This document shows positions 40,395-56,995 of a stretch of 64,000 nt of DNA, one piece after another; positions within the stretch are counted from its first letter, which is position 1; each line of letters opens with the position of its first letter. The stretch covers positions 3,162,623-3,226,622 of the forward strand of contig CAWIPH010000002.1 in assembly GCA_963837955.1 (NCBI GenBank), read 5' to 3'. A model generated the notes under the pieces. It had not been told where the DNA came from. It did not search any database and was given only the letters and a program-made list of their open reading frames with translations. The translations under genes were made by a program, and so were the position numbers. The stretch comes from an uncultured Verrucomicrobiae bacterium (lineage in GTDB: Bacteria > Verrucomicrobiota > Verrucomicrobiia > Chthoniobacterales > JAFAMB01).

Positions 40395-40482
40395 GGTTAC
40401 ATGTCAAATGACGAAAGTTACGTATCGAAGTTGCGTCTAAAAGACAGGCTCCCGTCCAATCTCAGATCGCGACCACCACGGC

Positions 40483-40594: not shown

Positions 40595-41523
40595 TGCCCG
40601 GTCGTGATCGCGCGGCGAACGGACGCCAATGGAGCGCTATCGTCGAAACGCACTGTTTTCCCATTCGATATCACTCCGAGTTGTTTCCAGAGGGCATTCA
40701 GATCGGGTGTTACTGGCTTTGCCCTCCATTCGTTGTAAAGCTCTGTTAAGACCGGAACTCCAGTGGCTTTGTCACCCGTCGCCAACAAGTCGGTTAGTTC
40801 TGCTTCTGTCTGGATGTTGCCGTTCTTTTCCAGGATTGCTCGCACGGCGTCTTCCAGACCCTTCTGATTGCGGGTGCGGCGCCGGATCTCAACATCGGCG
40901 TAAAGGCAGAACATGGCTCCTCCCCAGTAGGTGCGACCCCAAGTCGGCGTGTAATCCAGACCGCGATCGCCGGTTTTGGGAAGGCCGTTCGGCATGCCAT
41001 CAACCATGTCTCCCCAAATTTTCTCCGGCGATAATTGGCCAACTCGCGTCCTGGCAATCGGCTCAACGTAGGTGGCCAACCCTTCTTCGATCCAATGATG
41101 CTTTTCGGCCACCGAAGGCAGCGCGAGATGCACCATTTCGTGGGTCATGATCCAATCATCGTCGAATTGCACAGCAGTGTTATTTCGACCTACGGCGATT
41201 TCAATTCGCGCACCTTTCCAGCCCGAAGCGTGCCCGTTGTCTACACCCCATCGACTGCGAAGATTCACCGTGATGTTGACCATGGAAACGGGATATCTTC
41301 GGTAGTAAGCGCTCACTGCCGTTGCTGCTTTGGTAATCCAGACTTGAATGGCCTGCTTCAGCGGATCAGCCGGAGGCGTTGAAAACGATACTTGAATAAT
41401 TGAACCCGCGGACTTGAGCGTGATTCCGCTGTTCGAAGTTTGGCTGTGCATTGGTGCACCCGAGCAAGTGAAAATCAGAACCAGGCTCGTTGTGATGATA
41501 CAACTCCGAGCTGCAATACGCAT
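40591..41523 (-). CDS. Secreted HExxH zinc metallopeptidase (gluzincin-like)
   Basis: 310-aa ORF with a signal-like N-terminus (MRIAARSCIITTSLVLIFTCSGAP). IMTHEMVHLALPSVAEKHHWIEEGLATYVE contains HExxH plus a downstream Glu, as in M1/M61-type peptidases. Confidence 0.65.
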   Translation of the reverse strand: MRIAARSCIITTSLVLIFTCSGAPMHSQTSNSGITLKSAGSIIQVSFSTPPADPLKQAIQVWITKAATAVSAYYRRYPVSMVNITVNLRSRWGVDNGHASGWKGARIEIAVGRNNTAVQFDDDWIMTHEMVHLALPSVAEKHHWIEEGLATYVEPIARTRVGQLSPEKIWGDMVDGMPNGLPKTGDRGLDYTPTWGRTYWGGAMFCLYADVEIRRRTRNQKGLEDAVRAILEKNGNIQTEAELTDLLATGDKATGVPVLTELYNEWRAKPVTPDLNALWKQLGVISNGKTVRFDDSAPLASVRRAITTGQ

Positions 41524-41787
41524 GAGTTACCTTTTCTGTTTTGTGTATTGAGAACAGCCGTAAGAGTCGCCCGAATCGTATTTTCTTCCTCAAACTGATT
41601 CAGCGTTTGCCACAAACCTCCGCAGTCTCAATCCGCGGGCAATTCGCGTGGCTCACAGTGTGATGAACCCTGGAGGCATTCAAATATAGAGCCGGCCCAC
41701 GATTCGTCTGAATGACTGCGTTAATACAATAGGATCACTGTTTTTTCTTGGAAGGACTATCCGCTCCGGCCCCCACCGCAACGACCG

Positions 41788-42612
41788 CTATTCGGGTGCG
41801 GCGTGCGGAGTGGAGACTTCTCTAAGGCCCTCTGGAGTGAATTCTCGATCGGCATAGGCCACGTCGTGTTTAATACGGGAGCCGTCCAGATCGGTCACGG
41901 AATCTCCCCGCGGACCGCGCACGAGCAGATTGCCAGGGATGGACCGACCCAGATCGTCTGTGACCACCCGCGTCGTCTCAATGCGGCGCGCTGGCTGGCC
42001 CGCGCCGAGGTTTTTTTCTACGCGGAGCGCAACGAATCGGCGGGGATCAATCCAAGTGCGCACGCTCGCGTAAGTGGACGACTCTCCCCTGCCAGGTCTC
42101 GACTCAAGAATGACGCAGTTCACGCCATTCAGGACCTCATTGCCAGCGATGGACTGGTTTTCCCAATCGAAGAAGTCCTCGATGATATCCTGGTAAGATA
42201 GATTGCTGCCGAACAGGGCGTCGTTCATCTGTGAGGTATCTAGAGAGCGCAGCTGATCAGGAGGCGTGAAAAGCGAACCAGTCGGGGCGTGACCATCTAC
42301 TTTGTGTAAGAGGACGGCTTCTCCTTTTCGCTCTTTGGGCCAAAGCACTTGGTAAACGAGGTCGGTGGCCGTCTTCGTACGGCGCTGCTTAATCTGAAGT
42401 TGAAGCGCGACCTTGGTGGTGCCGTCAGGCTGTTTCACTTCAAGACGAAGACGCACGTAAGACACGCCATCCTGCAGGGCGGAAAGGCGGGCGGCGAGGT
42501 CCTTGGCGGATATTGCGGGTGGCGCAGTGTCGGCGCCGCGGGCGAACGAAGCAAGTAGCGTAAGGCCGAGAATGGCTGGAACGCGTAACATCATCGAGTA
42601 CAGCAGATTCAT
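41788..42612 (-). CDS. LolA-like outer-membrane lipoprotein-sorting family protein
   Basis: 274-aa ORF with a signal peptide (MNLLYSMMLRVPAILGLTLLASFARGA). The core LFGSNLSYQDIIEDFFDWENQSIAGNEVLNGVNCVILESRP...YASVRTWIDPRRFVALRVE resembles the LolA_like family often paired with FtsX-type ABC systems. Confidence 0.7.
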   Translation of the reverse strand: MNLLYSMMLRVPAILGLTLLASFARGADTAPPAISAKDLAARLSALQDGVSYVRLRLEVKQPDGTTKVALQLQIKQRRTKTATDLVYQVLWPKERKGEAVLLHKVDGHAPTGSLFTPPDQLRSLDTSQMNDALFGSNLSYQDIIEDFFDWENQSIAGNEVLNGVNCVILESRPGRGESSTYASVRTWIDPRRFVALRVEKNLGAGQPARRIETTRVVTDDLGRSIPGNLLVRGPRGDSVTDLDGSRIKHDVAYADREFTPEGLREVSTPHAAPE

Positions 42613-42631
42613 GGATTGTTCGTGTCGAAAG

Positions 42632-43747
42632 TCAGCCTTGTAAGGCCCGGCCCGGGGTGAGCCGCGAACTACGCCATGCAGGGTAGAGACCGCTCATAAC
42701 GCCTACCACAACGGCGATCCCCACAGATTTAGCGAGGAGAATGAAGCTGGTGTCCGGCTCCAGGAGTCCGCGGATGGCAGGCGTCGCGCCGAGGAACTTT
42801 ACACCAATAGCACCGATGAGCACGCCTACCACGCCGCCGAGCAGACCGAGCAGGGCCGACTCCCACAGAACCATCCGAACGATCCGCCCTCGTTTCCATC
42901 CGAGTGCGAGCAAAACACAAATCTCCTGCGTGCGCTCAAATACGTTCATCAGCATCGTGTTCATTACGCCGAGTACACCGACGAGCACCGCCAGCAAAGA
43001 AGTGCCCCAGCTCATGGCCTGCACCATGCGATACGCCTCGCTATTGGTGATATTCTCGCTCGCCACCACGGCGCGGCCTTCCGGGACCAGGCGGTTGATC
43101 TGCTCACAGAGAAGGTCCACATCTTTGGCGCTGGTTGAGGGCGTGACGCTGATGTCGACAATATTGATCCTGCCCTCATTCCCAGAGATTTCTTGGAACA
43201 GGGGGAGAGAGAGAATGATCGAGCCGTTCTCCACCCACGCATTGCCGTCGACGATCCCAACCACGGTCAGCTCACGAGTCTCGATCTCAATCGGATCACC
43301 AACTTTTTTCTTAAGCACTTCCGCCGCTGTACGGCCCAAGACAACGGCTGGCTCTGCCGGGTCGCGCGGCATTCGCCCCGAGATTACCTTGAGATTTTTC
43401 CAAGCAAATCCGGCCCACTCCCGCGCGGACACCATCATCATCTCGGTGTTCTCAACGCTCATCAAGTCTACCAATATCGCGCACGTGTCAGCCACGTGAG
43501 GAAGGTGAGCGATCCGGTCGCGCACCGAGACGGGAAACGGCTTCGGGATCAGGGAGCTGCCCATATTGCTGATTACCACATCGGTGCCACGCGCTTTCAA
43601 TCCTGACTCCCAGCTCCGATTAAACCCGCGCGAGATACCGACCAATGCAACGACGGCGGCAATGCCGATTGAGATGCCTAAGAGTGTCAGCCCGGTTCGC
43701 ATCGGACGACGTGTCAGCCCACGCACCACCACTGTGAAAAAAGTCAT
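42632..43747 (-). CDS. ABC transporter permease, FtsX/MacB type
   Basis: The start was moved to MTFFTVVVRGLTRRPMRTGLTLLGISIGIAAVVAL, just after the ATPase stop. A large periplasmic loop lies between TM1 and TM2. The C-terminal FtsX bundle reads RTQEICVLLALGWKRGRIVRMVLWESALLGLLGG. Confidence 0.85.
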   Translation of the reverse strand: MTFFTVVVRGLTRRPMRTGLTLLGISIGIAAVVALVGISRGFNRSWESGLKARGTDVVISNMGSSLIPKPFPVSVRDRIAHLPHVADTCAILVDLMSVENTEMMMVSAREWAGFAWKNLKVISGRMPRDPAEPAVVLGRTAAEVLKKKVGDPIEIETRELTVVGIVDGNAWVENGSIILSLPLFQEISGNEGRINIVDISVTPSTSAKDVDLLCEQINRLVPEGRAVVASENITNSEAYRMVQAMSWGTSLLAVLVGVLGVMNTMLMNVFERTQEICVLLALGWKRGRIVRMVLWESALLGLLGGVVGVLIGAIGVKFLGATPAIRGLLEPDTSFILLAKSVGIAVVVGVMSGLYPAWRSSRLTPGRALQG

Positions 43748-43748
43748 A

Positions 43749-44495
43749 TTATGCTCCTGCGACGGCCGTTTCGCGATCTGATACAACGCGCCCGTCCTTC
43801 ATGTGGATTATTCGTGATGCTCGCTGGGCGATGCTCGGGTCGTGCGTCACCAACACCAGCGTCATGTTCTCCTCCAGGTGGACCCGAACGATCAGCTCGA
43901 GGATGAGGCGTGCGTTCTCGCTGTCGAGGTTGCCCGTCGGTTCATCCGCAAGCAGGACGGAAGGAGTATTAGCCAGGCTGCGGGCGATGGCAACGCGCTG
44001 CCTTTCTCCGCCGGACAGCTTAGCTGGGAAGTGGTTGAGGCGGTGCTCCAGTCCGACCGACTTTAGCAAGGTCATGGCTCGATATTTGCGCTCCGAAACG
44101 GGAAGGTCGCTTTCAAACATCGGAATTTGCACGTTCTCGAGCGCAGTAAAGGTCGGCAGCAGGTGAAACGCCTGGAAAATGAAGCCGATCTGATGAGCGC
44201 GATAACTCGATGGATCAGGCAGATCAGGAATCGAGTTTCCACGGTAGAGCAAGGTTCCAGCAGTAGGCCGGTCAAGCGCACCCAGCATTTGAAGCAGTGT
44301 GGTTTTTCCACAGCCGCTTGGACCGGTAATGGCCACGAAATCTCCCTGGACCACGCTAAAAGTTACACCGCGCAAGGCCTGGACTTGGCCATCCTCGAAT
44401 TTTTTCTCGAGCCCTATCGCCTCGAACACGTATCTCGAAGGTGCGGTGGTCGGGTTCTCCAATGTACTTTGACTAATAGATGAATGCTGACTCAC
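43749..44495 (-). CDS. ABC transporter ATP-binding protein (LolD/MacB-type)
   Basis: 248-aa ORF with Walker A GPSGCGKTTLL, Q-loop, signature LSGGERQRVAIARSL, Walker B LLADEPTGNLD and an H-loop (VTHD). Confidence 0.95.
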   Translation of the reverse strand: MSQHSSISQSTLENPTTAPSRYVFEAIGLEKKFEDGQVQALRGVTFSVVQGDFVAITGPSGCGKTTLLQMLGALDRPTAGTLLYRGNSIPDLPDPSSYRAHQIGFIFQAFHLLPTFTALENVQIPMFESDLPVSERKYRAMTLLKSVGLEHRLNHFPAKLSGGERQRVAIARSLANTPSVLLADEPTGNLDSENARLILELIVRVHLEENMTLVLVTHDPSIAQRASRIIHMKDGRVVSDRETAVAGA

Positions 44496-44550
44496 AAGAT
44501 CGGTCGTCGCGTGTTCGCCCCAGCTGCGCCTATGGGCTGCACACTCCTGT

Positions 44551-45555
44551 TCAAGGTGGCGTGGCTGTGCGCCACTGGGCTCCCGCTCGCGGGTCGCGAA
44601 GACTATTAAGAAGGTCCATCAACGCATGCCGGTAGCTCGGAAATGGAGATACTTCGCCGGGGTTCTTCGGCGCGAGTTCCGAAGCGTGTTGGGGCAATTC
44701 CGCGTGCGGCACGCCGGAATGCCGGTGATGAACGCCGTGATAGGGCTCATGGAGCAGAGTGAAGGCGACGAACTGGCCGAGCGGCCCCTCTGACACAATG
44801 CTCCGGGTAGAGCTGTTTACAGTCGAGCCGGTGAGTCCGACGTGCTCGATGTATTTGCGCCAGCTCTGCATGTTCGCGGCCAGAAACGCAGGCGCCAGGT
44901 ACATCCACAGAAAATATTTCCATGCGCCCCACCACGTCACCGCCGCCAGGATACAAAACCACACACCAGCCATCAGGGCGAACTCCGCCCAAATTCGCCG
45001 GCGCAGCTTTTTGTTCCGAATCGGCGTACCGGTGCGGAGAAAAGTGCGTACGAACAAAAACGGCGTGTAAAACAAGCCGAGATTTAGTTCCAGAATTGCG
45101 GCCAGGACCCTGCCCCAGCGCGGCGTTCCAGGAATGACGAAGGGCCAGAGTTCTATGTCCCGTTCAGTGGCCAGATATGCGTGATGCAATTGGTGCGCCG
45201 CGCGGTAGAGGCTCAAGCTCATCAAGCTAAAGACCCCAATAATAATGCCATCAATTTCATTCAAGCGCCGGCTCTTTCGAAGCAGTCCATGAGATGCCTC
45301 ATGGAAGCCGATCAACATCCCGTGCATAAGGTGGCTGGCCGTTAACACTAGCGGCAAAGCTAACCAGATAGATCCAAAGTACAGGGCGGTACCCAGTGCA
45401 GCTTGATTGAGAAAGAAAACGGCGGCGAGGACTGGGAAAGCCGCACGGCTCACCCAATGGGGTTGTTGCGGTTCGAGCAACGTTTCTGTTGATGGCGTAG
45501 TATTCATCGCGTTCAGGTCATAAGGGCGGCGATCCGACTTTCTGGAGAGCGACAA
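44551..45555 (-). CDS. Membrane fatty-acid desaturase family protein (di-iron, three His boxes)
   Basis: 334-aa ORF with His boxes HEASHG, HQLHHAY and HGVHHRH separated by hydrophobic helices. The annotated start overlaps the upstream C-domain gene. An alternative ATG at 45507 removes the overlap. Confidence 0.85.
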   Translation of the reverse strand: MSLSRKSDRRPYDLNAMNTTPSTETLLEPQQPHWVSRAAFPVLAAVFFLNQAALGTALYFGSIWLALPLVLTASHLMHGMLIGFHEASHGLLRKSRRLNEIDGIIIGVFSLMSLSLYRAAHQLHHAYLATERDIELWPFVIPGTPRWGRVLAAILELNLGLFYTPFLFVRTFLRTGTPIRNKKLRRRIWAEFALMAGVWFCILAAVTWWGAWKYFLWMYLAPAFLAANMQSWRKYIEHVGLTGSTVNSSTRSIVSEGPLGQFVAFTLLHEPYHGVHHRHSGVPHAELPQHASELAPKNPGEVSPFPSYRHALMDLLNSLRDPRAGAQWRTATPP

Positions 45556-46862
45556 GTGCCTGCGAGCACAGCCTCGAACAGGTACGCTAAGTTTTTAATT
45601 TCCGCTAGAGGGAACAGTTTCGGTCGGAAAAGCCATACTACCTCCAATCCCTCCTCCACTACCGTGATTTCGCATCCCAGGTAAAAACGCGCTGTACCGG
45701 TCGAGCGCATCCGGAGCCGGGCGGACAGTCCGTGCACCGTTATGTCTGGCACAGGATGGTTTTGCAAGGCGAACCGCACTTCAAAAATGGGATTGTGCCC
45801 CGGTGCAGGCAAGTCTCCAAGCGCCGGTACGAGTTCAGCGAATGGCATGGCATTCGCGAAGGAATCCACGGTTGTTTGATGCACCGCCCTTAGGCTCGCG
45901 GAGAACGGACGGTCTACATCGACCTGGCCTCGGAGTGGCACAATACCGGCGCAGTACCCCATCGTTTCCCGCACGGCCTGCTTGGCTCGATTCGCTACGG
46001 GCGTACCAACCAGGATGTCCTTCTCGCCTGTCCATTGGGCGAGCGTGACCTGAAAGGCAGCCAGCAGTGCGTTGAAGAGCGTTGTGCCAGTGACGCGGGC
46101 CAGCTCTCGCGCGGCATCGGCCAGATCGACCGGCAGATGCGAAACCCATCGATCGGGCGCACTCGACCCGGTCTCGGGTCCTTCCAGGGAGTTCCAGAGC
46201 CGCCGGCTTCCCGCGAGATTGGATTTCCAGAAAGCGGCCCGTCGCTCCAATTCCGCCGGCTGCCAGAACGCGCGTTCGGCTGCTCCCCAAGCCGGGTAGG
46301 TGAGCGACAATGGCGGAAGCCCCTCGCGCAGACTCATGAGCCCTTGCACATAGGCAACACACAGATCCTGGACGAACACACCCAGCGTCCAGCCATCAGC
46401 AATGGCGTGATGAATCGCGAACACTAGCACGTGGTCATCGGCAGCTCGCCGGAGCCCCTCGGCCCGGTAAAGAGGTCCCTGCACCAGATCGAATGGCTCG
46501 CTGAAAATCTCTCTCGCCAGATCTTCGACCGCCTCTTCGTGCCTCTGCGTAGACGAAAGCTCGCGGAAACGGAAATTGGCTTCTCCGCCCTGGCGAATCA
46601 TCTGTAGCGGCCGATCTTTGCCGGGCAAGAAGGAGAGGCGCATAACCTCCTGCCGTTCTACCACTCGCTGAATCGCAGCCTCGCAGGCGTGTCGCGTAAT
46701 GACGCCCCGCATCTGGATAAGGCAGCAGATGTGGTTCGCTATATCCGTCACGGCTACCGGCGAGACCTCCCACAATTCCCGCTGGGGAAATGTCAGCGGT
46801 TGGAGGCTTGCTTTTCCGCTGGCCAGCCACTCTTTAAGAAGGGCGCGCTTGTCTCCTGACAT
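45513..46862 (-). CDS. Free-standing NRPS-type condensation (C) domain protein / PapA-like acyltransferase
   Basis: 449-aa ORF with the catalytic motif HHxxxDG in VLVFAIHHAIADGWTLGVF and the N-terminal block PLTFPQRELW. There are no A or T domains. It starts 18 nt after the PKS stop. Confidence 0.85.
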   Translation of the reverse strand: MSGDKRALLKEWLASGKASLQPLTFPQRELWEVSPVAVTDIANHICCLIQMRGVITRHACEAAIQRVVERQEVMRLSFLPGKDRPLQMIRQGGEANFRFRELSSTQRHEEAVEDLAREIFSEPFDLVQGPLYRAEGLRRAADDHVLVFAIHHAIADGWTLGVFVQDLCVAYVQGLMSLREGLPPLSLTYPAWGAAERAFWQPAELERRAAFWKSNLAGSRRLWNSLEGPETGSSAPDRWVSHLPVDLADAARELARVTGTTLFNALLAAFQVTLAQWTGEKDILVGTPVANRAKQAVRETMGYCAGIVPLRGQVDVDRPFSASLRAVHQTTVDSFANAMPFAELVPALGDLPAPGHNPIFEVRFALQNHPVPDITVHGLSARLRMRSTGTARFYLGCEITVVEEGLEVVWLFRPKLFPLAEIKNLAYLFEAVLAGTCRSPESRIAALMT

Positions 46863-46879
46863 GTGGATCTCGGGTTCGC

Positions 46880-49800
46880 TTAGCGCACGGCGTCCTGGGG
46901 ATCAGAAGCGTCATCCGAGGCCGAATCAAAGCGGAGCAATCCCTCAATTTCCTCGTCCGAAAGCGCTTCCAAATTCACGTCGTCGGTGGACGCCTCGTCC
47001 GGCGCCGCCGCGCGTGCTGTGGTTGGCGCGAGTCCCCCATCAACCCTCTTTGCGCCCATGTGCTCAGCGATCAATGAAACGATTTGAGCGATCGTGCGCG
47101 CCCGGATCAGGCTGGCTGATGGCAGCGCCACGCCGATTGCGCTTTCGATCGAGTTTTCGATCTCAACGCCCATCAGCGAATCGAGCCCCAACTCCGTGAG
47201 CGGCTGGTCGTCGCGTAGAGTTTCCGGCTTCACGCGCAGCACCGAGCCAACGACATCCCGCACCGCTTGCCTGATGATGCCCTCCAGCTCTTCCGGCTTG
47301 GCCGATTCGACCTTGAGGCGCCAGTCGCTCGTTGCACCGCTCGTCTCCTGGCTTTCAACGGATGCAAAAATGCGCTCGAGCAAAGGATTCTCCTGCATGC
47401 CGCGGAAAAACTGGCGCCATTTCGCCCAATCGACGCGGATCGCCATCACTTGCGTGACGCCTGCGGCCAGGGACGATTCCAAAAGTCCCATCACTTCCCT
47501 CGGTGAGAGTTCCGTCGTGCCCTGTCGCGCGAGGAATTCGGCGACGCGTTCATTGCGAGCCACATAACCCTCACCGCCGAGAACACCCCAATTGACCGTG
47601 AGCGCTGGGAGGCCCAATGCGCGGCGGTGATGGGCCAGCGAGTCGAGGAAAGCGTTGGCAGCGCCGTAACTGCCCTGTGCCGGATTGCCAAAGATGCTCG
47701 AGACGGATGAGAACATCACGAAGCAGTCAAGTTCGAGATCTCGGGTGCCTTCGTGCAGCAACCACGCTCCATGCGCCTTGGGTGCCATCACGCTGCGGAC
47801 CCGCTCGCGGGTAAGCGAAACGAGTGGCGCATCGTCGATTACCATCGCCAGATGGAACAAGCCCCGCAGCGGTTGATCGCCTGAACGAATCTCCCCGATG
47901 AGTCGCGCGACGTCCTGTGATGAGCCGATATCCGCCCGCACCACTCTCACATCGACGCCGACCTTGCGAAGGCTTTGCACAAACGCCTCTGCTTCGGGCG
48001 TGGCTCCGCCGGTCCGGCTGGTAAGCACGAGATGGCGGGCGCCGCTGTCGACCAGCCATTGCGCCAGCACTTTCCCGAAACCGCCAAACGCCCCAGTGAT
48101 TAAGTAACACCCGTCCGGATTGATCGCGAAAGCCGGCCGAAGCGGTTCTCCACGCTGGGGAAGGAACGCTTCGGGAAACGCTACGACGACTTTACCGATG
48201 TGTTTGCCCTGCGCCATCAACCGAAACGCTGCGTCAACCCGGTAGGCGGGAAACGAACGGAACGGGAGCGGACCGAGCGCGCCCTGTTCGATGAGTCCGG
48301 AGATTTCCTCCAGTATTTTTCGGGTCAATGCCTCATCACCCGAGAAGACCGCATCCATCGCGATGACGTGAAATGACGCATTGCGGCGGAGGGGCCAGAG
48401 CGGGATCCGGGCATTCTGATAGATATCGCGTTTGCCGATCTCGATGAAGCGGCCGAATTCTGCGAGACATGAAAGTCCCATCGGAATTGCTTCGGCGGCG
48501 AGCGCATTCAAGACCACGTCCACGCCCCGCCTGCTGGTCAATTCCATTACGGCGTCTACAAAATCAGCACGTCGCGAATCAATCACGTGTTTTACTCCCA
48601 GCGTTTCCAGCAGCGCGCGCTTGGCCGGACTGCCGGCGGTGGCGATGACCTCCGCCCCGAGATAGTGCGCGATCTGGATGGCAGCCATACCAACGCCACC
48701 CGCACCAGCGTGGACGAGAACTCGCTCACCTTTCCGCACCCGCGCGATATTCAACAGCGCATGCCACGCGGTCATGAAAACTACGGGTAACGTAGCCGCC
48801 TGCTCAAACGATAGTCCACCAGGAATGCGGCGTACGTCACCGCCTCTCGCCAGTGTAAGCGAAGCGAGCCCGAACGCGGCGAGGCCAAAGACTCGGTCTC
48901 CGGGTATGACATGTTCCACTCCGGAGCCGACCGCTTTCACCACGCCAGCCACCTCGTCGCCGAAGATCCGAGCATCCGGCGCTTCGCCGGGATACAGTGC
49001 GAGCGCCTTGAGCACGTCGCGGAAATTCATTCCCGCCGCTTTCACTTCGATCAGCACTTCGCCGGCACCGCAGGCCGGCAGCGCGAAAGGCACGAAGCGC
49101 AGGGCGTCGAGATGCCCGCGCTCGCGGGACACGAGTCGCAGCGGCACCGCCGGATCGAGTAATTCCTCGCGCGAAGACCGACCACGAACGAGGCGCTGAA
49201 CGTATCGGGCTTCGCCCCGGAACGCAATTTCACGCTCGGCATCCTCGCGCAGCAGCTCGCTCCAAAGCAAGGACTGGTCAGATGCCGAAGGTTCGGGTGG
49301 CAGATCGATCTCGCGGCCCAAGAAATTTGGGTACTCGTTCCGGATGACGCGCATCAACCCGAGGAGGGGTGATTGCGCTACGCTGGTCGTATTCATCCCA
49401 CGTCCCGCCGGCTGAGCTCCGCGCGTCACCAAATCGATGCGCCGTTTTGCAGGTTCTTTGATATCTTCCGTCGCCTGGATCAGATGGAGCAACGCATCGG
49501 TGCCCATTAGCGCAGCATCTCCGGCGGCGTCTGGCCGCGGCTCGTCCAAACTCCACAGGTAAACAAAACGTTCCGGTGGAGCGTCGTCAGCGTATTCGTG
49601 AAGGAGCTGCTTCCAGTCGTCGAGCACCTCTGCCCGCAAAGTGAATGTGTCCGTCCCCTCCAGTGCAAAATGGTCGCCCCGTCGGGCGACACGGCAGCGG
49701 ACGCCCAAGGCGTGCAATTGCGAAGCCAACCCGTCACCAAGACCGGAGGCGTCCGCGAAAATGAGCCATGACTTCTCCGCCGGCACCTCCAAGGGTGTCT

Positions 49801-52800
49801 CCGCTGAAGGAGAGACAGCGGCGGCAGAATCGTGCCAGGACTTGCGCGCGAGGAGACCGATCTGGCCTTCGCCTTCCGGAGCGACCAGTCCTGGCAGTGA
49901 AGCGGTCTCTTCGAAGCCCGTCTCCCGTAAGACGACCTCCCATTGAGAGCGCTCCAACAAAGGATGGAGCGGACGCAAATCGCGATCGGTAAACCGCCAC
50001 CAGCCGGTCGTGAGACCGAACACTACTTCCGTCCATAACTGTGGACTAGCGACGTCCATGAATACTAGGTTCCCGCCTGGCGCCAACAGTTCGTGAATAT
50101 GTCTCAGCGTTGAACGCAAATCGCTCACCGCATGTAGCACATTGGTGCCGATGATGAAATCGAATGCCCCAGCTTCGAAGCCTTGCTCGACGCCTGGTTT
50201 TTCGAGATCAAGGATTTTGTATTCCACTTCAGGAAAGCCGGCCAGCTTCTGCATGGCGCCGCTAAAAAATGCCGCAGAGACATCACTGAAGGTATAGGAA
50301 TGTAAATCGCGTTCGATCAGCGGCAGCACGTGCGAGGCTAGTCCACCGGTGCCAGCCCCAACCTCCAGGATGCGCAGTCCGCGGCCCTCTGGCAGATGGC
50401 GGGCTGCTTCCTGCACCGCTGCAGCGATCGCCGCGAGCCAGTGGCTTGTGTAGAGGCCCTCGCCATAGAACTGGTCCAGTAACTCCGCTGAGGTCCCGCC
50501 GAACAGCACCTGGACAGCATCCTTCTCACCACGCAGGATAGGACCGAGTTCGGCGCAGTTCGCGGCGCAGAGGAGGCCCTCGGACAAATGTCCGGAATGA
50601 GTGGAGATGAATGACCGCAGGCTTTTCTGGGCGGAGTTTGCCGCGCTCGTAAAGGAAGGCGTTAGCCGGTAACTGTCGTCTTCTCTTATGAGCCAGCCCC
50701 GTTTCACGAGGCTCGCGGTTAAACGCTCGAACACAGGTCGCATCGGTTCTGCCACCCGCAGAGAATCGGCCGTGAAGCCTTCGCTTAGCGCCGCCAGAGC
50801 TATCATTTTCTGGAGACCACGGGCGAGTTGCGCCGCAGCGAGGTCATCTCCGGCTTCCATGGCATTCTGAAGCTCGGTCCGGCCTCGCGTGGCGATCACC
50901 TGCTCCATTGCATCCTGCGCCGCGCCGCGCATGCGGTCCAACGATACTGGTGATCGATATGCAGGGCGCGACGCTGCCGGCGTTCGCTCCCACAGGAGAT
51001 GATAAAGAACATTATGGTTTCCTCCCGTCGCGCCGGATCGGCGCGCCCCCGAGACGCTGATCGCCCGGAAACCATCCACCAGCACACAAGGCCTTCCTGC
51101 CTCATCATACAATTCAATCTTGCCTTCGAGGTACTCGCTATTCCACTGCTGCACAGCGGCGCGAACGAGACTGGAGGCTCCCGGCGAGCGTAGAAACAGA
51201 ATCTTGGCAAAGCGCACCGGTAGTTTTAGTTGAGCCTTGCGACCCTCTACCGTCGCGGCTCCTGCCGAAAGGATTTGCATCGCTCCGTCGAACAGAACGG
51301 GATGGAGCGGATACTCACCCGCTCGATGAGCAATCGCGTCGGACAACGAAACCCGGCCCGCCGACTTGCCATCGCCAGCCGAGAGCTCGCGGATGGGTCG
51401 GAACTCATCGCCGTAGCGAAGTCCCATGTCACTCATGTGGCGATAGAAGCCCTCCACCTCTACCGGCGCGACGCCAGCCGCCGCTTTGCGTTCCCAGGGT
51501 GACGACGCAAAGCCCGATTCGGTGCGCTCGCCACGCATCGAGCCTACGACATGCAGTGACCAGGCAGCGCCTTGGTCGAACCTGCTCTGGATCAAGAAAG
51601 TGCGCTCATTCGGATTATAGGAAAACTCGACGTGAAGCCCCGAAACGGAATCCGGCAAAATGAGCGGCTTGCGAATCTCAAAGTCCTCGACGACAAAAGG
51701 CCGGCCCTCGAAGAGCTGCACGCCCGCTTCCAGTGCCATTTCGACAAAGGCCGCTGCTGGAAACACGACTAAATTCTCGACCCTGTGATCCTTCAGAAAG
51801 GCCATGTGCCGGGCATCAAGCCGCGCGATCCAGGTTGGCGTGGCCCAAGGCAGTCGGACATCGAGCAATCCGCGACCACCGGAACCCAGACGGCCCTCGC
51901 GCCAGTCGCTGGACTCATGCCACCAGCGGCTCTTGTCCCAGGCGTAAGTCGGGAGTGAGAGCAGCCGCCGGGATGGCGTCATCCTCGCGAAATCCAACGG
52001 GACGCAGGAGCGGTGCAGCTCCATCGCGGTCTCGAGCACCGATTCGTGCTCGCGTTCCCGGCGTGCGGAACACATCACCGGTGCTTTGCCGCCCCGCCCA
52101 GCGAGGCATTCCTGAATCGAATGAATCAACGCCGGGTGCGCGCTGATTTCCAACCAAACGTCCACCCCGAAGTCCGACACCGCGTTGACGGCAGACGCGA
52201 ATTGCACCGACTGGCGCACTCCACGTCCCCAGTGAGCCGCGTTGCACTCCTGTCCGGCGCACCGCAGGCCAGTCACCGTGCTGAAAAACGGCACCCCTTC
52301 TCCCTGCGGCTTGAGATCGTCCAACGCTTCTTCCAGGGCCTCGGAAGCAGGCTGCATCAACGGGTGATGAAACGGGTGGTCTACCCGCACGAGTCTTGCG
52401 AAAACCCCTTGGAGTTCCAGCTCGGCGGCTATCGCCTCAAGTGATAGCCGGGAACCTGCCAGCGTCAACGAGCGAGGTCCGTTGAACGCCGCGATCGTCA
52501 GCGTGCGGTCATGCCGGGCAATCAGCGCCTGCGCTCCGTCCTCGTCCAGACCGACCGCGAGCATCGTTCCTTCACCCCGCGCACAGTCATCCATGAATCG
52601 GGCGCGCAACACGATCACCCGCGCTGCTTCCTCCAAAGTGAACACTCCCGCGACGCACGCCGCTGCCACTTCTCCAACACTATGGCCAACGATTGCAGCC
52701 GGCTGAACGCCCCAGGATTTCCACAATTCCGTTAGCGCCACCTGCATCGCAAAAATGGCTGGCTGCGCGATTTCGGTTCGATGCATTTGTGAGGCCTCTT

Positions 52801-54583
52801 CCGAGCGGCCGAGTTCCTCCAGCAGCGAGAACCGCGCCCATGGCCGCATCGCGGCATCGCACCGCTCGATGCTTTGTCGGAATACGGGCTCGTATTGCAT
52901 GAGCTCAGCGCCCATACCCCACCACTGTGGGCCTTGGCCGCTCATGACAAAAGCGACTCGCGGCGCTTGCTCCGGGCTCGGCGCGAAGGCCATGCGCACC
53001 TTCGAGCCCTTCTCTCCCCCTACGTAGGCGTTAAGCTCCTCGACGACCTCTCCCATCGAATGGGCAATGAGGGTGAGCCGATATGGGTGATGATTGCGCT
53101 TGGCCCCAAGGGTGTAAGCCAGATCCGGCAGCACCGGCGAACTGCCATTCGCCTTGGACCGCTCATCTGACCAGGCGCTCAACCGCGATGCCGAGGAGCG
53201 CAGAGCTTCCTCGGATCGGGCGGAAAGAACCAATGGCCACGCGCGCTCTGAGTGGGTGCCTACATGCTCCGGCTGGGGGCGCGGCGGTGCCTCCGTGAGA
53301 AGGACGTGGGCATTCGCACCACCAAAACCAAACGAGTTAACGCCCGCTATGCGTACGTCGCCGCCGGTCTCCGGAAAGGGCTCCAGGGCGACGGGCACGC
53401 GGAGTTTCAGGGCAGCGAAGTCGATGTTTGGGTTGGGTATCTCAAAGTGTAAGCTGGGCGGAATGCGCCGGTGTTTCAGTACCAGCAGCGCTTTGACCAA
53501 ACCGGCGACGCCCGCTGCGGTCTCCAGGTGGCCGAGGTTCGTCTTTACTGACCCAATGAGGAGAGGTGCATCCGCCGGGCGGTCTTCGCAGAGAGCTGCC
53601 GCGAGGGCGTGGGCTTCGATCGGATCACCGACCGCCGTGCCAGTGCCATGGGCCTCGACAAATCCGATTTGAGACGGAGCAACGCCGGCGTCGATGCATG
53701 CGTCACGCACAAGCCGCGCTTGCGCCTCAGCGCTGGGAAGCGAGATCCCGTTGGTGTGGCCGTCTTGGTTAAGAGCCGTTCCAATGATTACCCCATGGAT
53801 CGGGTCGCCGTCCGCAAGCGCTTGAGAGAGCCGCTTGAGGAGCACCATGCCAGCTCCTTCGCCGCGGACGAAACCGTCGGCCGACGCGTCGAAGGCCTTA
53901 CACCGGCCCTCCGGGGACAGCATCGAGGCCCGAGAAAAGCCGATAAATCCGCCGGGCGTAATCATGACGGTGACGCCACCCGCCAGCGCCACATCGCCGC
54001 GGCCCGCCCTAATGTGTTCGCACGCCGCATGCACCGCCGTTAGCGCAGACGAACACGCAGTATCCATCGCAACGCTCGGCCCGCGTAGATTGAAGCAGTA
54101 GGAGACGCGGTTGGCGGCAATACTGTGTGCGCAGCCGGTGGGCGAGTGCGGACCGATGCCGGAATGCTCCCAAGGAGTGCCCTGAATCGCCTGATAATCA
54201 TTGTGAGAAATTCCGACGAAAACCCCGACGTCAGTCCCCCGTTCGAGATCGAGCACGAGGCCCGCATCCTCAATAGCCTCCCAAGCTGTCTCCAACAGCA
54301 ATCGGTGCTGCGGATCCACGTAGGGCGCCTCCCGTGGCGAGATCCCAAAAAACTGCGGGTCGAACTGATCAATCCCCTCCAAAAATCCGCCGCGCCGAGC
54401 GATCGACTTGCCCGGCAGGCCCAACTCCGCATCGAAAAATCGGTCGACATTCCAGCGGTCGGCCGGCACTTCACCGACCGCCTCGCGGCCCTCCACGAGG
54501 AGTTTCCAGAATGATCCTGTGTCATTTACTCCGCCGGGAAAACGGCAGCCGATTCCGATGACGGCGATACGATCCTTATGCAT
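46880..54583 (-). CDS. Single-module, fully reducing type I polyketide synthase: KS-AT-DH-cMT-(psiKR)-ER-KR-ACP, no thioesterase
   Basis: 2567-aa ORF. KS (nt ~53294-54583): DTACSS, HGTGT, GHLETAAG. AT (~52064-52966): GHSVGE, HPFH. DH (~51044-51916): HRVENLVVFP and LHPVLFDGAMQ. C-methyltransferase (~49904-50596): LRILEVGAGTGGL. ER (~48179-49141): LVHAGAGGVGMAAIQ. KR (~47564-48121): YLITGAFGGFGKVLA and SYGAANAFLD. ACP (~47069-47296): LGLDSLMGVE, with the Ser codon at 47177-47179. An acidic C-terminal tail follows. Confidence 0.95.
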   Translation of the reverse strand: MHKDRIAVIGIGCRFPGGVNDTGSFWKLLVEGREAVGEVPADRWNVDRFFDAELGLPGKSIARRGGFLEGIDQFDPQFFGISPREAPYVDPQHRLLLETAWEAIEDAGLVLDLERGTDVGVFVGISHNDYQAIQGTPWEHSGIGPHSPTGCAHSIAANRVSYCFNLRGPSVAMDTACSSALTAVHAACEHIRAGRGDVALAGGVTVMITPGGFIGFSRASMLSPEGRCKAFDASADGFVRGEGAGMVLLKRLSQALADGDPIHGVIIGTALNQDGHTNGISLPSAEAQARLVRDACIDAGVAPSQIGFVEAHGTGTAVGDPIEAHALAAALCEDRPADAPLLIGSVKTNLGHLETAAGVAGLVKALLVLKHRRIPPSLHFEIPNPNIDFAALKLRVPVALEPFPETGGDVRIAGVNSFGFGGANAHVLLTEAPPRPQPEHVGTHSERAWPLVLSARSEEALRSSASRLSAWSDERSKANGSSPVLPDLAYTLGAKRNHHPYRLTLIAHSMGEVVEELNAYVGGEKGSKVRMAFAPSPEQAPRVAFVMSGQGPQWWGMGAELMQYEPVFRQSIERCDAAMRPWARFSLLEELGRSEEASQMHRTEIAQPAIFAMQVALTELWKSWGVQPAAIVGHSVGEVAAACVAGVFTLEEAARVIVLRARFMDDCARGEGTMLAVGLDEDGAQALIARHDRTLTIAAFNGPRSLTLAGSRLSLEAIAAELELQGVFARLVRVDHPFHHPLMQPASEALEEALDDLKPQGEGVPFFSTVTGLRCAGQECNAAHWGRGVRQSVQFASAVNAVSDFGVDVWLEISAHPALIHSIQECLAGRGGKAPVMCSARREREHESVLETAMELHRSCVPLDFARMTPSRRLLSLPTYAWDKSRWWHESSDWREGRLGSGGRGLLDVRLPWATPTWIARLDARHMAFLKDHRVENLVVFPAAAFVEMALEAGVQLFEGRPFVVEDFEIRKPLILPDSVSGLHVEFSYNPNERTFLIQSRFDQGAAWSLHVVGSMRGERTESGFASSPWERKAAAGVAPVEVEGFYRHMSDMGLRYGDEFRPIRELSAGDGKSAGRVSLSDAIAHRAGEYPLHPVLFDGAMQILSAGAATVEGRKAQLKLPVRFAKILFLRSPGASSLVRAAVQQWNSEYLEGKIELYDEAGRPCVLVDGFRAISVSGARRSGATGGNHNVLYHLLWERTPAASRPAYRSPVSLDRMRGAAQDAMEQVIATRGRTELQNAMEAGDDLAAAQLARGLQKMIALAALSEGFTADSLRVAEPMRPVFERLTASLVKRGWLIREDDSYRLTPSFTSAANSAQKSLRSFISTHSGHLSEGLLCAANCAELGPILRGEKDAVQVLFGGTSAELLDQFYGEGLYTSHWLAAIAAAVQEAARHLPEGRGLRILEVGAGTGGLASHVLPLIERDLHSYTFSDVSAAFFSGAMQKLAGFPEVEYKILDLEKPGVEQGFEAGAFDFIIGTNVLHAVSDLRSTLRHIHELLAPGGNLVFMDVASPQLWTEVVFGLTTGWWRFTDRDLRPLHPLLERSQWEVVLRETGFEETASLPGLVAPEGEGQIGLLARKSWHDSAAAVSPSAETPLEVPAEKSWLIFADASGLGDGLASQLHALGVRCRVARRGDHFALEGTDTFTLRAEVLDDWKQLLHEYADDAPPERFVYLWSLDEPRPDAAGDAALMGTDALLHLIQATEDIKEPAKRRIDLVTRGAQPAGRGMNTTSVAQSPLLGLMRVIRNEYPNFLGREIDLPPEPSASDQSLLWSELLREDAEREIAFRGEARYVQRLVRGRSSREELLDPAVPLRLVSRERGHLDALRFVPFALPACGAGEVLIEVKAAGMNFRDVLKALALYPGEAPDARIFGDEVAGVVKAVGSGVEHVIPGDRVFGLAAFGLASLTLARGGDVRRIPGGLSFEQAATLPVVFMTAWHALLNIARVRKGERVLVHAGAGGVGMAAIQIAHYLGAEVIATAGSPAKRALLETLGVKHVIDSRRADFVDAVMELTSRRGVDVVLNALAAEAIPMGLSCLAEFGRFIEIGKRDIYQNARIPLWPLRRNASFHVIAMDAVFSGDEALTRKILEEISGLIEQGALGPLPFRSFPAYRVDAAFRLMAQGKHIGKVVVAFPEAFLPQRGEPLRPAFAINPDGCYLITGAFGGFGKVLAQWLVDSGARHLVLTSRTGGATPEAEAFVQSLRKVGVDVRVVRADIGSSQDVARLIGEIRSGDQPLRGLFHLAMVIDDAPLVSLTRERVRSVMAPKAHGAWLLHEGTRDLELDCFVMFSSVSSIFGNPAQGSYGAANAFLDSLAHHRRALGLPALTVNWGVLGGEGYVARNERVAEFLARQGTTELSPREVMGLLESSLAAGVTQVMAIRVDWAKWRQFFRGMQENPLLERIFASVESQETSGATSDWRLKVESAKPEELEGIIRQAVRDVVGSVLRVKPETLRDDQPLTELGLDSLMGVEIENSIESAIGVALPSASLIRARTIAQIVSLIAEHMGAKRVDGGLAPTTARAAAPDEASTDDVNLEALSDEEIEGLLRFDSASDDASDPQDAVR

Positions 54584-54865
54584 AGAAGTGAGTCACCTGA
54601 TGTGACCGGAGCCTTAAGGGAAAATTCCGATCGTGACAAGTCAATGCTGTGCTGGGCTCTATAAAGAGGGTCAAACACCGGGCGGGCGAAGGGCGGCGGC
54701 ACTAAGCACGACGAGGGGCGTCCGAGTGAAATCGATGGCTATAAGCTTCATCCTTTTTCTTCTTTTCTTAGTCCCTTTTTCCCCAGTCCTTATTCGATTA
54801 AAGCGAAAGTGGTCGAAAAAACGGTTGTTTGGTGGGCATGCTCTGCACTAAGGCTGATAAATAAT

Positions 54866-56860
54866 ATGTGCGGCATCGCAGGTATCGTGGATCTGGCCGG
54901 ATACCGAACCGTAGCGGACGGCATTATCCAAAGGATGACGCAGGCGGTAGTTCACCGCGGCCCTGACGAGGAGGGTTACTTCCAGCGTCCTGGCTTGGTC
55001 CTGGGGTCGCGGCGGCTCAGTATTGTCGGCTTAGCGGACGGCCAGCAGCCGGTCACCAATGAAGACCGGAGTGTGTCTGTGGTGTTTAACGGTGAGTTCT
55101 TCGACTACCCTGAGAAACGCGCGGAGCTGGAAGCGCGCGGGCATCGCCTGGTCACACATTGCGACACCGAAATCATCCCACACCTTTGGGAGGAGAGTCA
55201 GGAAGGAGTGTTCGAACGCTTGCGTGGCCAGTTCGCCCTGGCATTGTGGGATGAGCGCCGGCGTCGTTTGGTACTTGGACGCGACCGTTTCGGCATCTGT
55301 CCGCTTTATTGGACGCGCCAGGGAGAGTGGCTCCTGTTCGCGTCAGAAATCAAGGCCCTGCTGGCTTCCGGTCTAGTGCCGGCGCGACCCGACCTTCGCG
55401 GTATTGACCACATTTTTACGTTCGCCGCCCTGCCTGGGCCGATAACCTGTTTCGAAGGCGTGCAGCTCCTGCCTCCTGGGCATTACCTGCGGATAGTCCC
55501 GGGTAACAATCGTGGCGCCGCACCCGCCATCAGCGAGCACGCCTATTGGGAGATGGATTTCCCGGACCGCGGCGACGAAGACCCAGGACGAGACCCGCGC
55601 GCTCTGGTGGATCGCTTCGAGCAGATAATGTTGCAGGCCGTGGAGGAGCGACTCCGGGCAGATGTGCCGGTGGGAGCCTATTTGTCGGGCGGAGTCGATT
55701 CAAGCATGATCACTGCCCTCGCCTGTCATCTCAAGGGTCCAGCGATTAACACCTACACGATCCGCGTTGACGCTCCTAAGCTTGACGAACTCAGTGCGGC
55801 CAACCTCGTGGCTCGGCATATCGGCACGAAGCAGCCGATCGTCCAGGAGTTTCGCGCTAGCGACACTCTCAACACGTATCCCCGGCTGATCCAAGCCGCA
55901 GAGGCACCGGTAGTCGATACCTCCTGTGCGGCTTTGCTGTTGTTAGCGCAACGTGTTCATACCTGTGGCCAGAAAGTGGTCCTCACGGGTGAAGGGGCTG
56001 ATGAGTGGCTAGCCGGTTATCCTTGGTACAAAGCGGCCAAAGCCATCGGTGTCCTGGACCTACTGCCCGGATTGCCGCTGAGCGACAGGGCGCGCCGCGC
56101 CTATCTTCGGCTGCACCACGTACCACAATATCCGGCGCAGTTTCGGCGTACCCTCGAGGAATCCGTCGGCGGTCCCAACGCCTGGATTGATACTTACGGG
56201 GTGCTCGGAATCTCCAAGCTTCGATTTTACGCTGCGCCAATGCGGGAAGTGCTAGAGAAAACCAATCCCTGGGCTGATCTTAGAATGCCGCTGGATCGTG
56301 CCAACCGCTGGCACCCGTTGAACCGAGGCATCTGGGTCGCAGCGCGCGTTACTCTGGCCGGACACTTGCTTCAGGCCAAAGGCGATCGAGTGGCGATGCA
56401 CTCCTCTGTGGAGGTGCGATATCCCTTCCTCGATGAAGATGTCTTCGATTTTTTGGCCGGGCTGCATCCACGTTGGAAACTCCGTGGGTTTCGGGACAAA
56501 CACCTGCTCCGCCTCCTAGCCGAACGCTGGGTGCCGCCGTCCGTATACCGGCGCCGCAAGGTTATCTTCCGCGCTCCCCTGGATAGTTTCCATATCGAAC
56601 CGGAGCCGGCGTTCGTGGCTCAGCTCTTAAGTGAAGAATCGCTGCAACGCACCGGATATTTTGACATTGCTGCGGTGCATCATTGGCGGCGGGCCTTCCG
56701 TCAGATGCCGATTGGTTCCCTGCCACGCCTCTCCGTGGAGTTGGGGTTGACGGCGGTGGTGGCGACTCAGCTTTGGCATCATCTGTTCATCGGGCCGGAA
56801 TTGGCAGAATTGCCAACCTGGACGGGCAACCGAACGGTGCTTGAGAATGTGTCATTCTAG
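54866..56860 (+). CDS. Asparagine synthetase B-like glutamine-dependent amidotransferase
   Basis: The start was moved to MCGIAGIV, where the class-II Ntn amidotransferase needs Cys2. The PP-loop YLSGGVDSSMI is in the synthetase domain. The protein is ~664 aa. It is divergent from the PKS gene. Confidence 0.9.
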   Translation: MCGIAGIVDLAGYRTVADGIIQRMTQAVVHRGPDEEGYFQRPGLVLGSRRLSIVGLADGQQPVTNEDRSVSVVFNGEFFDYPEKRAELEARGHRLVTHCDTEIIPHLWEESQEGVFERLRGQFALALWDERRRRLVLGRDRFGICPLYWTRQGEWLLFASEIKALLASGLVPARPDLRGIDHIFTFAALPGPITCFEGVQLLPPGHYLRIVPGNNRGAAPAISEHAYWEMDFPDRGDEDPGRDPRALVDRFEQIMLQAVEERLRADVPVGAYLSGGVDSSMITALACHLKGPAINTYTIRVDAPKLDELSAANLVARHIGTKQPIVQEFRASDTLNTYPRLIQAAEAPVVDTSCAALLLLAQRVHTCGQKVVLTGEGADEWLAGYPWYKAAKAIGVLDLLPGLPLSDRARRAYLRLHHVPQYPAQFRRTLEESVGGPNAWIDTYGVLGISKLRFYAAPMREVLEKTNPWADLRMPLDRANRWHPLNRGIWVAARVTLAGHLLQAKGDRVAMHSSVEVRYPFLDEDVFDFLAGLHPRWKLRGFRDKHLLRLLAERWVPPSVYRRRKVIFRAPLDSFHIEPEPAFVAQLLSEESLQRTGYFDIAAVHHWRRAFRQMPIGSLPRLSVELGLTAVVATQLWHHLFIGPELAELPTWTGNRTVLENVSF

Positions 56861-56995
56861 TGCGCCGATCGTGTGCGACGACAATCGGCGAGACCAAAGG
56901 AAGCATTTGCGGGCTTGCACCCGCTCTCTGACGAACGCTACAACGTGTCCCATCATGTGGGATGCGTAGAGCTTTCTTATGACCAATACAATCAA

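Follow-up and report, generated by a model that had tools for sequence, protein, structure and literature searches.

What would a bacterium make with a fully reducing polyketide synthase (PKS) encoded beside a free-standing condensation protein, a membrane desaturase, an ABC transporter and a LolA-like protein, and where would the product go? A locus of this kind is present in a 64,000-nucleotide (nt) stretch of DNA from an uncultured Verrucomicrobiae bacterium of the Chthoniobacterales type (contig CAWIPH010000002.1), the whole of which is referred to here as the window. An earlier note on this DNA described six minus-strand genes at 41788-54583 and proposed that they form an envelope lipid operon. 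The left edge of that region was retained, and the right edge proved too narrow, as it missed an AsnB-like gene, the amidase genes and a gene for a tetratricopeptide repeat (TPR) protein at 54866-60810; the conserved unit covers approximately 41788-60810. On balance, and judging from sequence, this is probably a nine-gene Verrucomicrobiota locus for a PKS-derived envelope lipid with dedicated export. Our confidence in any specific acceptor for the lipid chain is much lower.

The six genes were all recovered in the list of open reading frames (ORFs), in the same places and with the same Pfam family assignments. In order of transcription on the minus strand they encode the PKS (46880-54583; 2567 amino acids [aa]), with the domains KS-AT-DH-cMT-ER-KR-ACP; a free-standing condensation (C) protein of the nonribosomal peptide synthetase (NRPS) type, the proposed off-loading enzyme (45513-46862; 449 aa); a protein of the membrane di-iron desaturase/hydroxylase family (44551-45507; 318 aa); a type VII ABC ATPase of the MacB/LolCDE/FtsEX class (43749-44495; 248 aa, Pfam ABC_tran); a permease with a MacB-like periplasmic core and a C-terminal FtsX domain (42632-43747; 371 aa); and a secreted, non-lipoprotein member of the LolA superfamily (PF17131, LolA_like/TP_0789-like), the proposed periplasmic lipid carrier (41788-42612; 274 aa).

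Two of the starts were corrected. The desaturase ORF, first called as 44551-45555, begins at 45507, and its 318-aa product equals the gene on record for the source genome. The permease ORF, first called as 42632-43786, begins at 43747, which gives a length of 371 aa, that of the orthologues. After both corrections, the intergenic gaps from the PKS gene to the LolA-like gene are 17, 5, 55, 1 and 19 nt. The description of these genes as separated by 55 nt or less, or overlapping, stands for the gaps and not for the overlaps, which vanish. The PKS and AsnB-like genes are divergent, with 282 nt between their starts (54584-54865). As a simple sigma-70 scan returned no site in this region, promoters are only presumed there. 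A promoter and terminator scan of 40400-55000 found fewer sites than in shuffled sequences and so gives no transcript boundaries.

Is the arrangement kept in other genomes? A scan of species-representative genomes found at least 80 related loci; the 80 listed were compared with the window proteins by tblastn, and the counts given here use the loci with enough flanking sequence. All 80 belong to Verrucomicrobiota, with carriers in Chthoniobacterales (Ca. Udaeobacter, Terrimicrobiaceae), Verrucomicrobiales (Prosthecobacter, Luteolibacter, Akkermansiaceae) and Pedosphaera. Homologues of the C protein are also abundant in soil metagenomes (76-99% identity), and the named ones are from Chthoniobacterales. 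The desaturase gene follows the C gene in 73 of 74 loci, the AsnB-like gene lies divergently upstream of the PKS gene in 46 of 53, and the ABC-FtsX-LolA_like trio is complete, colinear and on the same strand in 47 of 59, at 43-93% amino-acid identity. Identity is ~90% in close Chthoniobacterales and ~62-68% in Verrucomicrobiales, a drop with taxonomic distance that fits vertical descent.

For six diverged PKS orthologues (L081-L086) we also read the extended context. The same nine genes were present in all of them (amidase, TPR protein, AsnB-like, PKS, C protein, desaturase, ATPase, permease and PF17131 protein). The TPR gene adjoins the amidase gene in all six, and the amidase-TPR-AsnB group stands beside the PKS gene in all six; the AsnB-like, amidase and TPR genes are as conserved as the transporter. 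Genes beyond these nine are unrelated between genomes, which fixes the boundaries of the locus. Since order and strand are kept in 47 of 59 loci despite identities as low as 43%, and the genes outside are unrelated, the arrangement lies far outside what chance would produce. The operon-like packing and the coupling of a PKS-derived lipid to its own transport, as first proposed, are thus supported and are strengthened by synteny across the phylum.

Three neighbours downstream of the LolA-like gene, encoding a 310-aa secreted HExxH protein, an AHSA1/SRPBCC protein and a DUF899 protein, were considered and left outside the unit, being found in 0 of the 80 related loci. The 310-aa protein (40591-41523, minus strand), encoded directly downstream of the LolA-like gene, carries the motif HEMVH and has no Pfam or NCBIfam match.

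The layout varies in its details. In five of the extended contexts the amidase and TPR genes converge on the AsnB-like gene, and in L086 and the window the three are codirectional and divergent from the PKS gene. Another locus (L032) has this block, AsnB-TPR-amidase, at the opposite end of the operon, moved but still attached. Three relatives, L016 (13057-19974), L031 and L036, have genes for a 1285-aa patatin-like phospholipase, a PGAP1-like alpha/beta hydrolase and a 370-aa protein between the ATPase and permease genes, and two others, L046 (12255-13850) and L072, have a PGAP1-like hydrolase gene between the desaturase and ATPase genes. We considered the 370-aa protein as a second permease and rejected this: it is not a permease and has no Pfam match. 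At 63395-63937 (plus strand) the window itself has a weak partial match to the PGAP1-like hydrolase of these relatives.

Small low-complexity ORFs that look secreted or lipoprotein-like, with Thr runs and acidic tails, lie between the desaturase and ATPase genes of L081 (20180-20497) and L082 (20138-20344). Nothing of this type is present in the 55-nt gap between these genes in the window, and the possibility that they are carrier proteins was rejected, as the products are secreted peptides of low complexity. Where the ABC trio is absent, downstream genes differ between relatives. One such locus (L065) has an O-antigen-ligase-family gene after the core. Another (L055:15004-20283) has an RND tripartite set (OEP, HlyD, AcrB) ~2.6 kb downstream of the desaturase gene, which may serve as another exporter or lie there by coincidence.

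What could the PKS make? Pfam gave the domain order ketoacyl-synt, Acyl_transf_1, PS-DH, Methyltransf_12, ADH_zinc_N, KR and PP-binding, with neither a loading module nor a thioesterase (TE), and the C-terminal tail is acidic (LEALSDEEIEGLL). The motifs are intact from KS to DH (DTACSS, HGTGT, NLGH, GHSVG, HPFH, HRVENLVVFP, DGAMQ) and from cMT to ACP (ILEVGAGTG, the S-adenosylmethionine [SAM] motif of the C-methyltransferase, then GAGGVG, GAFGGFG, YGAANAF, VIDD and LDSL), so that the catalytic capacity ascribed to the enzyme is borne out by motif. Established motif rules exist for AT specificity (malonyl, HAFH) and for KR type. The AT motif here, HPFH, is close to HAFH, and the KR reads as B type, feeding a dehydratase. 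The AT is thus malonyl-type and not methylmalonyl-specific, and the branching capacity sits in the cMT domain.

By sequence, the PKS is most like the mycobacterial Mas/Pks2 enzymes. Its best PDB match is mycocerosic acid synthase (Mas; ~1042 bits). In NCBIfam, PKS_plus_SDR ranks first (1354 bits, cut-off 1740) and Pks2 second (equivalog NF041183; 1248 bits, cut-off 2400), both under the curated cut-offs. The enzyme has the single module of Mas (KS-AT-DH-ER-KR-ACP, no loading module or TE), with the extra cMT placed between DH and ER. The 37 window ORFs scanned, and the PKS itself, showed no TE, adenylation (A) or peptidyl carrier protein (PCP) domain. A bacterial cluster for the string KS-AT-DH-cMT-ER-KR-ACP(-C) is not described in the literature matches listed, which treat fungi or general methods.

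How would the chain leave an enzyme of this kind? The C protein starts 17 nt past the PKS stop and matches Pfam Condensation (PF00668) with E 4e-59 and 201 bits (gathering threshold 30.6) over profile positions 5-443 of 456, with the catalytic HHAIADG at residue 151. It has neither a signal peptide nor a transmembrane segment and is therefore placed in the cytoplasm; the PKS, too, is free of hydrophobic segments. Its best PDB matches are NRPS C domains (TycC PCP-C, Txo1/2 and PvdL), with ~30% identity to ordinary NRPS C domains; its NCBIfam matches are NRPS models only, and a search of representative proteins was dominated by giant multi-C NRPSs at 24-33% identity. PapA5 and VibH were not among the 54 PDB sequences that it matched at E<=1e-5. 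The C protein had been compared with the PapA acyltransferases of mycobacteria, and it does combine, as they do, an HHxxxDG motif in a free-standing protein with a neighbouring Mas-like PKS. This likeness holds at the level of function. Kinship with PapA was rejected on sequence, the nearest solved relatives being NRPS C domains. An A/PCP module that could supply an acceptor was found neither in the 35 other window ORFs scanned nor on record in the six extended contexts, and the only carrier domain of the PKS is its own ACP; the rest of the genome was not searched.

One of the 80 loci, from a Ca. Udaeobacter metagenome-assembled genome (L065:2357-11341), encodes the PKS and the C protein in one 2994-aa frame, KS-AT-DH-cMT-ER-KR-ACP-C. 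This could be a true fusion or a stop codon lost in the assembly. At the junction, the acidic PKS tail (..DLDALSSEEIDRFL..) runs straight into the basic N-terminus of the C protein (..KRDRFRRWL..), and both the acidic tail and the basic N-terminus are conserved across that junction. The fused frame supports a predicted direct hand-over from ACP to C. A precedent exists in Zmn19, a stand-alone C domain for which a free primary amine is the acceptor in the release of a PKS ACP-thioester (PMC5811116).

The desaturase-family protein would act on the chain in the membrane. It matches Pfam FA_desaturase (PF00487) with E 3e-32 and 112.7 bits (threshold 29.7), and its hydrophobic segments and three His boxes (HEASH, HQLHH, HGVHH) place it in the superfamily. 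Matches to NCBIfam are weak (DesA, GntB and CrtW, 21-31 bits), and we found no solved relative in PDB and no close curated relative in NCBIfam.

Which functions do the additional plus-strand genes bring? The first encodes an AsnB-like glutamine-dependent amidotransferase (54866-56860; 664 aa from MCGIAG) with GATase_7 and Asn_synthase domains and the catalytic Cys directly after the initiator Met. It belongs to the asparagine-synthase family (TIGR01536, 400 bits, above the cut-off of 267), has no signal peptide, being cytoplasmic by its N-terminus, and with a median identity of 77% exceeds all other members of the set in conservation. The top match in PDB, 7ylz, was deposited as a hydroxyamidotransferase (1e-52) and outranks E. 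coli AsnB (1e-40), which on the question of aspartate as the physiological substrate is suggestive only.

The amidase gene is duplicated in the window, where two amidase-signature amidases are tandem paralogues. The first (56996-58357, plus strand; Pfam Amidase E 2e-62) was read as starting at MKKSRG, which gives it a probable lipoprotein-type signal peptide. The second (58463-59794, plus strand; E 3e-64) has a lipoprotein signal peptide (..FLSGC) and keeps the motifs GGSSSGS and KG..TTAGS. PDB matches of the amidase are GatA, FAAH and a peptide amidase, and a lipobox ending in GC is present in the amidase orthologue of all six extended contexts.

The TPR protein (59938-60810, plus strand; by our own reading the likely start is MNPALS at 60031) is secreted and of the RMD1-3 type, with a Pfam RMD1-3 match of E 3e-14 over profile positions 23-224 of 235 and a readable signal peptide. 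Most orthologues have a Sec-type signal peptide without Cys; the L086 gene as called has none, and some called starts look truncated. The RMD1-3 family is named after eukaryotic proteins, among which PTPIP51/RMDN3 is reported to transfer phospholipids. As the AlphaFold2 (AF2) model of the TPR protein, made from a single sequence, was too poor for a fold search (predicted local distance difference test [pLDDT] 54.5), its likeness to lipid-transfer TPR domains is taken from the Pfam match. A periplasmic bacterial homologue beside a lipid operon is suggestive. From the N-termini, then, the locus is predicted to encode three cytoplasmic enzymes, two inner-membrane proteins with a cytoplasmic ATPase, and three periplasmic proteins.

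How would the product be moved? The ATPase has the Walker A motif GPSGCGKT and the LSGG signature; its best NCBIfam match is LolD (241 bits, under the cut-off of 308), and DevA scores 186 bits. The permease gene starts 1 nt past the ATPase stop. Its product has Pfam MacB_PCD and FtsX domains, with hydrophobic segments at the N-terminus and in the C-terminal third, and reaches 63.5 bits with lolCE (cut-off 362). The transporter had been called a MacB-type exporter, which is right for the fold and not for the layout. No membrane-fusion (HlyD-family) gene, the partner encoded with the pump in MacAB-TolC and DevBCA systems, was found in the window or in the extended contexts of the six relatives, and no outer-membrane channel gene is part of the unit in those contexts. 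The layout is therefore that of LolCDE plus a LolA-like protein and not that of DevBCA or MacAB-TolC: a type VII ABC transporter without a membrane-fusion protein stands with a soluble LolA-fold carrier. Membership in the curated Lol families did not follow, as LolD and LolCE were under their cut-offs and the carrier matches PF17131 and not the LolA family.

The LolA-like protein matches PF17131 with E 9e-18 and has an N-terminal hydrophobic signal segment without Cys. Among six orthologues read, four have a signal peptide without Cys; the L081 gene as called has no signal-like N-terminus, and that of L083 has a Cys in the signal region. A Foldseek search with the AF2 model returned, down to E 0.01, only members of the LolA superfamily, so the LolA-like identity assigned at first holds for the fold. 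LolA3 was on top (9tp6; E 4e-12, TM 0.62-0.71), with 3bk5, 4z48 and 3buu next and RseB, LprG, LolA and LppX after them.

From these assignments we propose a pathway. In the cytoplasm, the Mas-like PKS would take a fatty-acyl primer directly on its KS and extend it with malonyl units, probably iteratively, each round being fully reduced, and alpha-methyl branches would be introduced from SAM by the cMT domain. The C protein would dock on the ACP tail and free the chain onto an amine, giving an amide, or onto a hydroxyl, giving an ester; as acceptor, we would first guess an amino acid or other small amine. The AsnB-like enzyme would turn a free carboxylate of the product or the acceptor into a carboxamide. 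In the inner membrane, the di-iron enzyme would desaturate or hydroxylate the lipid, and the LolD/LolC-like ABC pump would extract it and pass it to the LolA-like carrier for the outer membrane. In the periplasm, the lipoprotein amidase and the secreted TPR protein may process or chaperone it. Support for an exported envelope lipid comes from the domain and family assignments, the tight gaps, the intact PKS motifs, the lack of TE, A and PCP domains in the ORFs scanned, the predicted compartments, the synteny and the fused PKS-C frame, from the nearest relatives of the PKS, the LolA-like protein, the AsnB-like enzyme and the amidase, from the lipid-handling genes (patatin, PGAP1-like hydrolase) inside the operon of some relatives, and from the precedent of Zmn19 (PMC5811116).

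Several points weigh against it. The sequence reveals neither iterative use of the PKS nor the site or type of the di-iron reaction. The C protein resembles an ordinary NRPS C domain that depends on a carrier protein, and the AsnB-like enzyme could be a housekeeping asparagine synthase whose position near the others has an unrelated cause. The AF2 model of the LolA-like protein came from a shallow alignment and, with a pLDDT of 56.8, is usable for fold class only. The closest solved relative of this protein, Porphyromonas gingivalis LolA3, has itself been assigned no function, nor does it form a pair with LolB (PMC13103446). Co-occurrence of the six minus-strand genes, which the earlier note had named as a check, is near-invariant for PKS, C and desaturase; the trio, colinear in most loci, is missing altogether from 8 of 59, so that export need not depend on it.

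A more specific version of the proposal, which we regard as quite unlikely in full, is a way of exporting lipids that has so far gone unrecognised in diderms. The AsnB-like enzyme would mask, in the cytoplasm, the free carboxylate of a methyl-branched N-acyl amino-type lipid, the LolCDE-like pump would deliver the masked lipid to the LolA3-type carrier, and the lipoprotein amidase would unmask it in the periplasm with the TPR protein as a second lipid chaperone. If true, this would give the Verrucomicrobiota that carry the locus a signature outer-membrane lipid, and PF17131/LolA3-type proteins a first assigned cargo.

Could the product be released instead? It is possible, though unlikely, that a specialised metabolite is made here and secreted. 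It might be, for example, a signal of the N-acyl amide or lipoamino-acid type, a surfactant or an antibiotic, and the ABC/FtsX proteins would export it or protect the cell against it, with the AsnB-like enzyme and the amidase as a prodrug-type mask and unmask. A PKS with a stand-alone C protein is typical of natural-product pathways, a cytoplasmic amide-forming enzyme is paired here with a periplasmic amide hydrolase, and the transporter is dispensable in the eight relatives without it. The composition also fits: G+C is ~0.60 for the operon with the AsnB-like gene (41788-56860) and ~0.54 in the rest of the window, a difference that could come from the amino-acid composition of the PKS or from an ancient acquisition. 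However, a gene set and order that are near-invariant over several orders, with identity tracking taxonomy, form the pattern of a core trait and not of a patchy cluster. A soluble LolA-fold carrier is better suited to passing on a highly hydrophobic cargo inside the envelope than to release into the medium, and the unit lacks an outer-membrane channel and a membrane-fusion gene.

Another explanation, very unlikely in our view, is that two or three independent units are adjacent by position: PKS-C-desaturase for a lipid, ABC-FtsX-LolA_like for general Lol sorting and AsnB for housekeeping. It agrees with LolD as the best curated match of the ATPase, with the AsnB-like protein passing the general asparagine-synthase model and being the most conserved member of the set, and with the trio being unlinked from the PKS in some genomes. 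Yet the ATPase and the permease score far under the Lol cut-offs (241 against 308 and 63.5 against 362 bits), and the carrier is PF17131 and not canonical LolA. Genes with unrelated functions would not usually show spacing of 1-19 nt on one strand and colinearity in 47 of 59 loci across orders. The AsnB gene of L032 moved and yet stayed attached at the other end of the operon, and lipase-type genes are inserted between the transporter genes of some relatives.

Least probable, and highly unlikely, is attachment of the PKS chain to an existing envelope macromolecule (a secondary acyl chain of lipid A, or an acylated polysaccharide or protein) in place of a free lipid: long AsnB-like enzymes resemble the exopolysaccharide/PEP-CTERM amidotransferases and L065 has its O-antigen-ligase-family gene, but the TIGR03108 score (396 bits) is far under the cut-off of 817, the unit has no conserved gene for a glycosyltransferase or of Lpx type, and lipopolysaccharide is transported by Lpt and would not use a LolA-like carrier.

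Does the proposed envelope lipid locus belong to a system that is already known? The functionally closest one is that of the mycobacterial phthiocerol dimycocerosates (PDIM) and sulfolipids, with Mas or Pks2, PapA, DrrABC/MmpL and LppX, the last of which acts in PDIM transport. Both have a fully reducing Mas-type PKS without TE, a separate HHxxxDG acyltransferase, dedicated transporters and a periplasmic protein of the LolA fold; the PKS has Mas as its top PDB match and Pks2 as its second-best in NCBIfam, and LppX and LprG are among the fold matches of the carrier. The parts differ, however. Branches would come here from cMT and SAM with a malonyl-type AT, and there they come from methylmalonyl-CoA; the C protein is NRPS-type here and PapA-type there; the transporter is a type VII ABC (MacB_PCD/FtsX) in place of DrrABC/MmpL; and the carrier is PF17131 in place of the LppX/LprG family. 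The AsnB-like, amidase and TPR set is additional here, and the host is a Gram-negative-type diderm.

As in Lol (LolCDE and LolA), the genes for three components stand together: an ATPase made as a separate protein, a permease of the MacB fold that lacks a membrane-fusion partner, and a LolA-superfamily protein that is soluble and secreted. The locus differs from Lol in the scores under the LolD and LolCE cut-offs, in the single permease gene, in a PF17131 carrier nearest to LolA3 and in being embedded in a PKS operon. Like the clusters for aryl polyenes (APE) and heterocyst glycolipids (Hgl/DevBCA), it is a widespread PKS- or fatty acid synthase-like lipid cluster with its own envelope transport genes; APE clusters include the LolA-like ApeL and the LolB-like ApeN (bioRxiv 10.1101/2020.12.19.423268), and DevA is a close relative of the ATPase. 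APE clusters, however, have type II enzymes and an RND exporter. DevBCA requires a membrane-fusion protein and TolC, neither of which is in the unit here, and neither APE nor Hgl has a C-domain off-loader or an AsnB/amidase pair.

The free-standing C protein recalls Zmn19 of zeamine synthesis and VibH, which end a PKS or carrier-bound chain through an amide with a soluble amine (PMC5811116). Those belong to antibiotic and siderophore pathways with known amines, whereas no amine-making genes are linked here and VibH is not among the matches. The PKS has the domain order of the fungal LovB-type highly reducing PKS (HR-PKS), KS-AT-DH-cMT-ER-KR-ACP(-C), literally so in the fused L065 frame. LovB, however, scores 725 bits against ~1042 for Mas, and the genes here form a bacterial operon with envelope transport genes. 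Membership in the known systems fails, therefore, on the Pks2, LolD and LolCE cut-offs, AT specificity, PapA kinship, carrier family and membrane-fusion protein. As far as sequence comparison goes, the locus is a work-alike of known systems, assembled from different parts and with an AsnB/amidase/TPR module that none of them has.

The earlier note did not recognise the combination as a described system, and we likewise found no description of this gene cluster in the literature; a review of Verrucomicrobiota mentions polyketide potential in general terms only (PMC12714770). What we describe is a new version of a known logic, a PKS envelope lipid with dedicated transport, and a nine-gene locus of this type across several orders of a dominant soil phylum should be a moderate surprise for specialists. 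Chthoniobacterales, Ca. Udaeobacter being one of them, rank among the most abundant bacteria in soil, and to our knowledge their envelope chemistry is almost wholly uncharted. If the proposal is true, it predicts a new class of branched lipids, possible biomarkers for Verrucomicrobiota, and offers a cargo that can be tested for the PF17131/LolA3-type carriers, as yet uncharacterised, and for the MacB-fold proteins that partner them. It would also mean that the mycobacterial strategy of PKS lipid, C-type acyltransferase and LolA-fold carrier arose independently in a Gram-negative-type lineage, and it would provide a compact pair of fungal-like cMT HR-PKS and stand-alone C protein for biosynthetic study.

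Other features of the window lie away from this locus. At 36914-38669 (plus strand), a gene of the MbnB/TglH/ChrH family (DUF692) overlaps a DUF2063 gene, a pair typical of systems that modify precursors of the type of peptides made by the ribosome and modified after translation; a pentapeptide-repeat gene lies upstream of the pair at 35613-36398. At 24797-32898 (plus strand), a gene for a 1878-aa bacterial alpha-2-macroglobulin (A2M) is followed by one for a PBP1c-like transglycosylase/transpeptidase, the classic A2M-PBP1c pairing.

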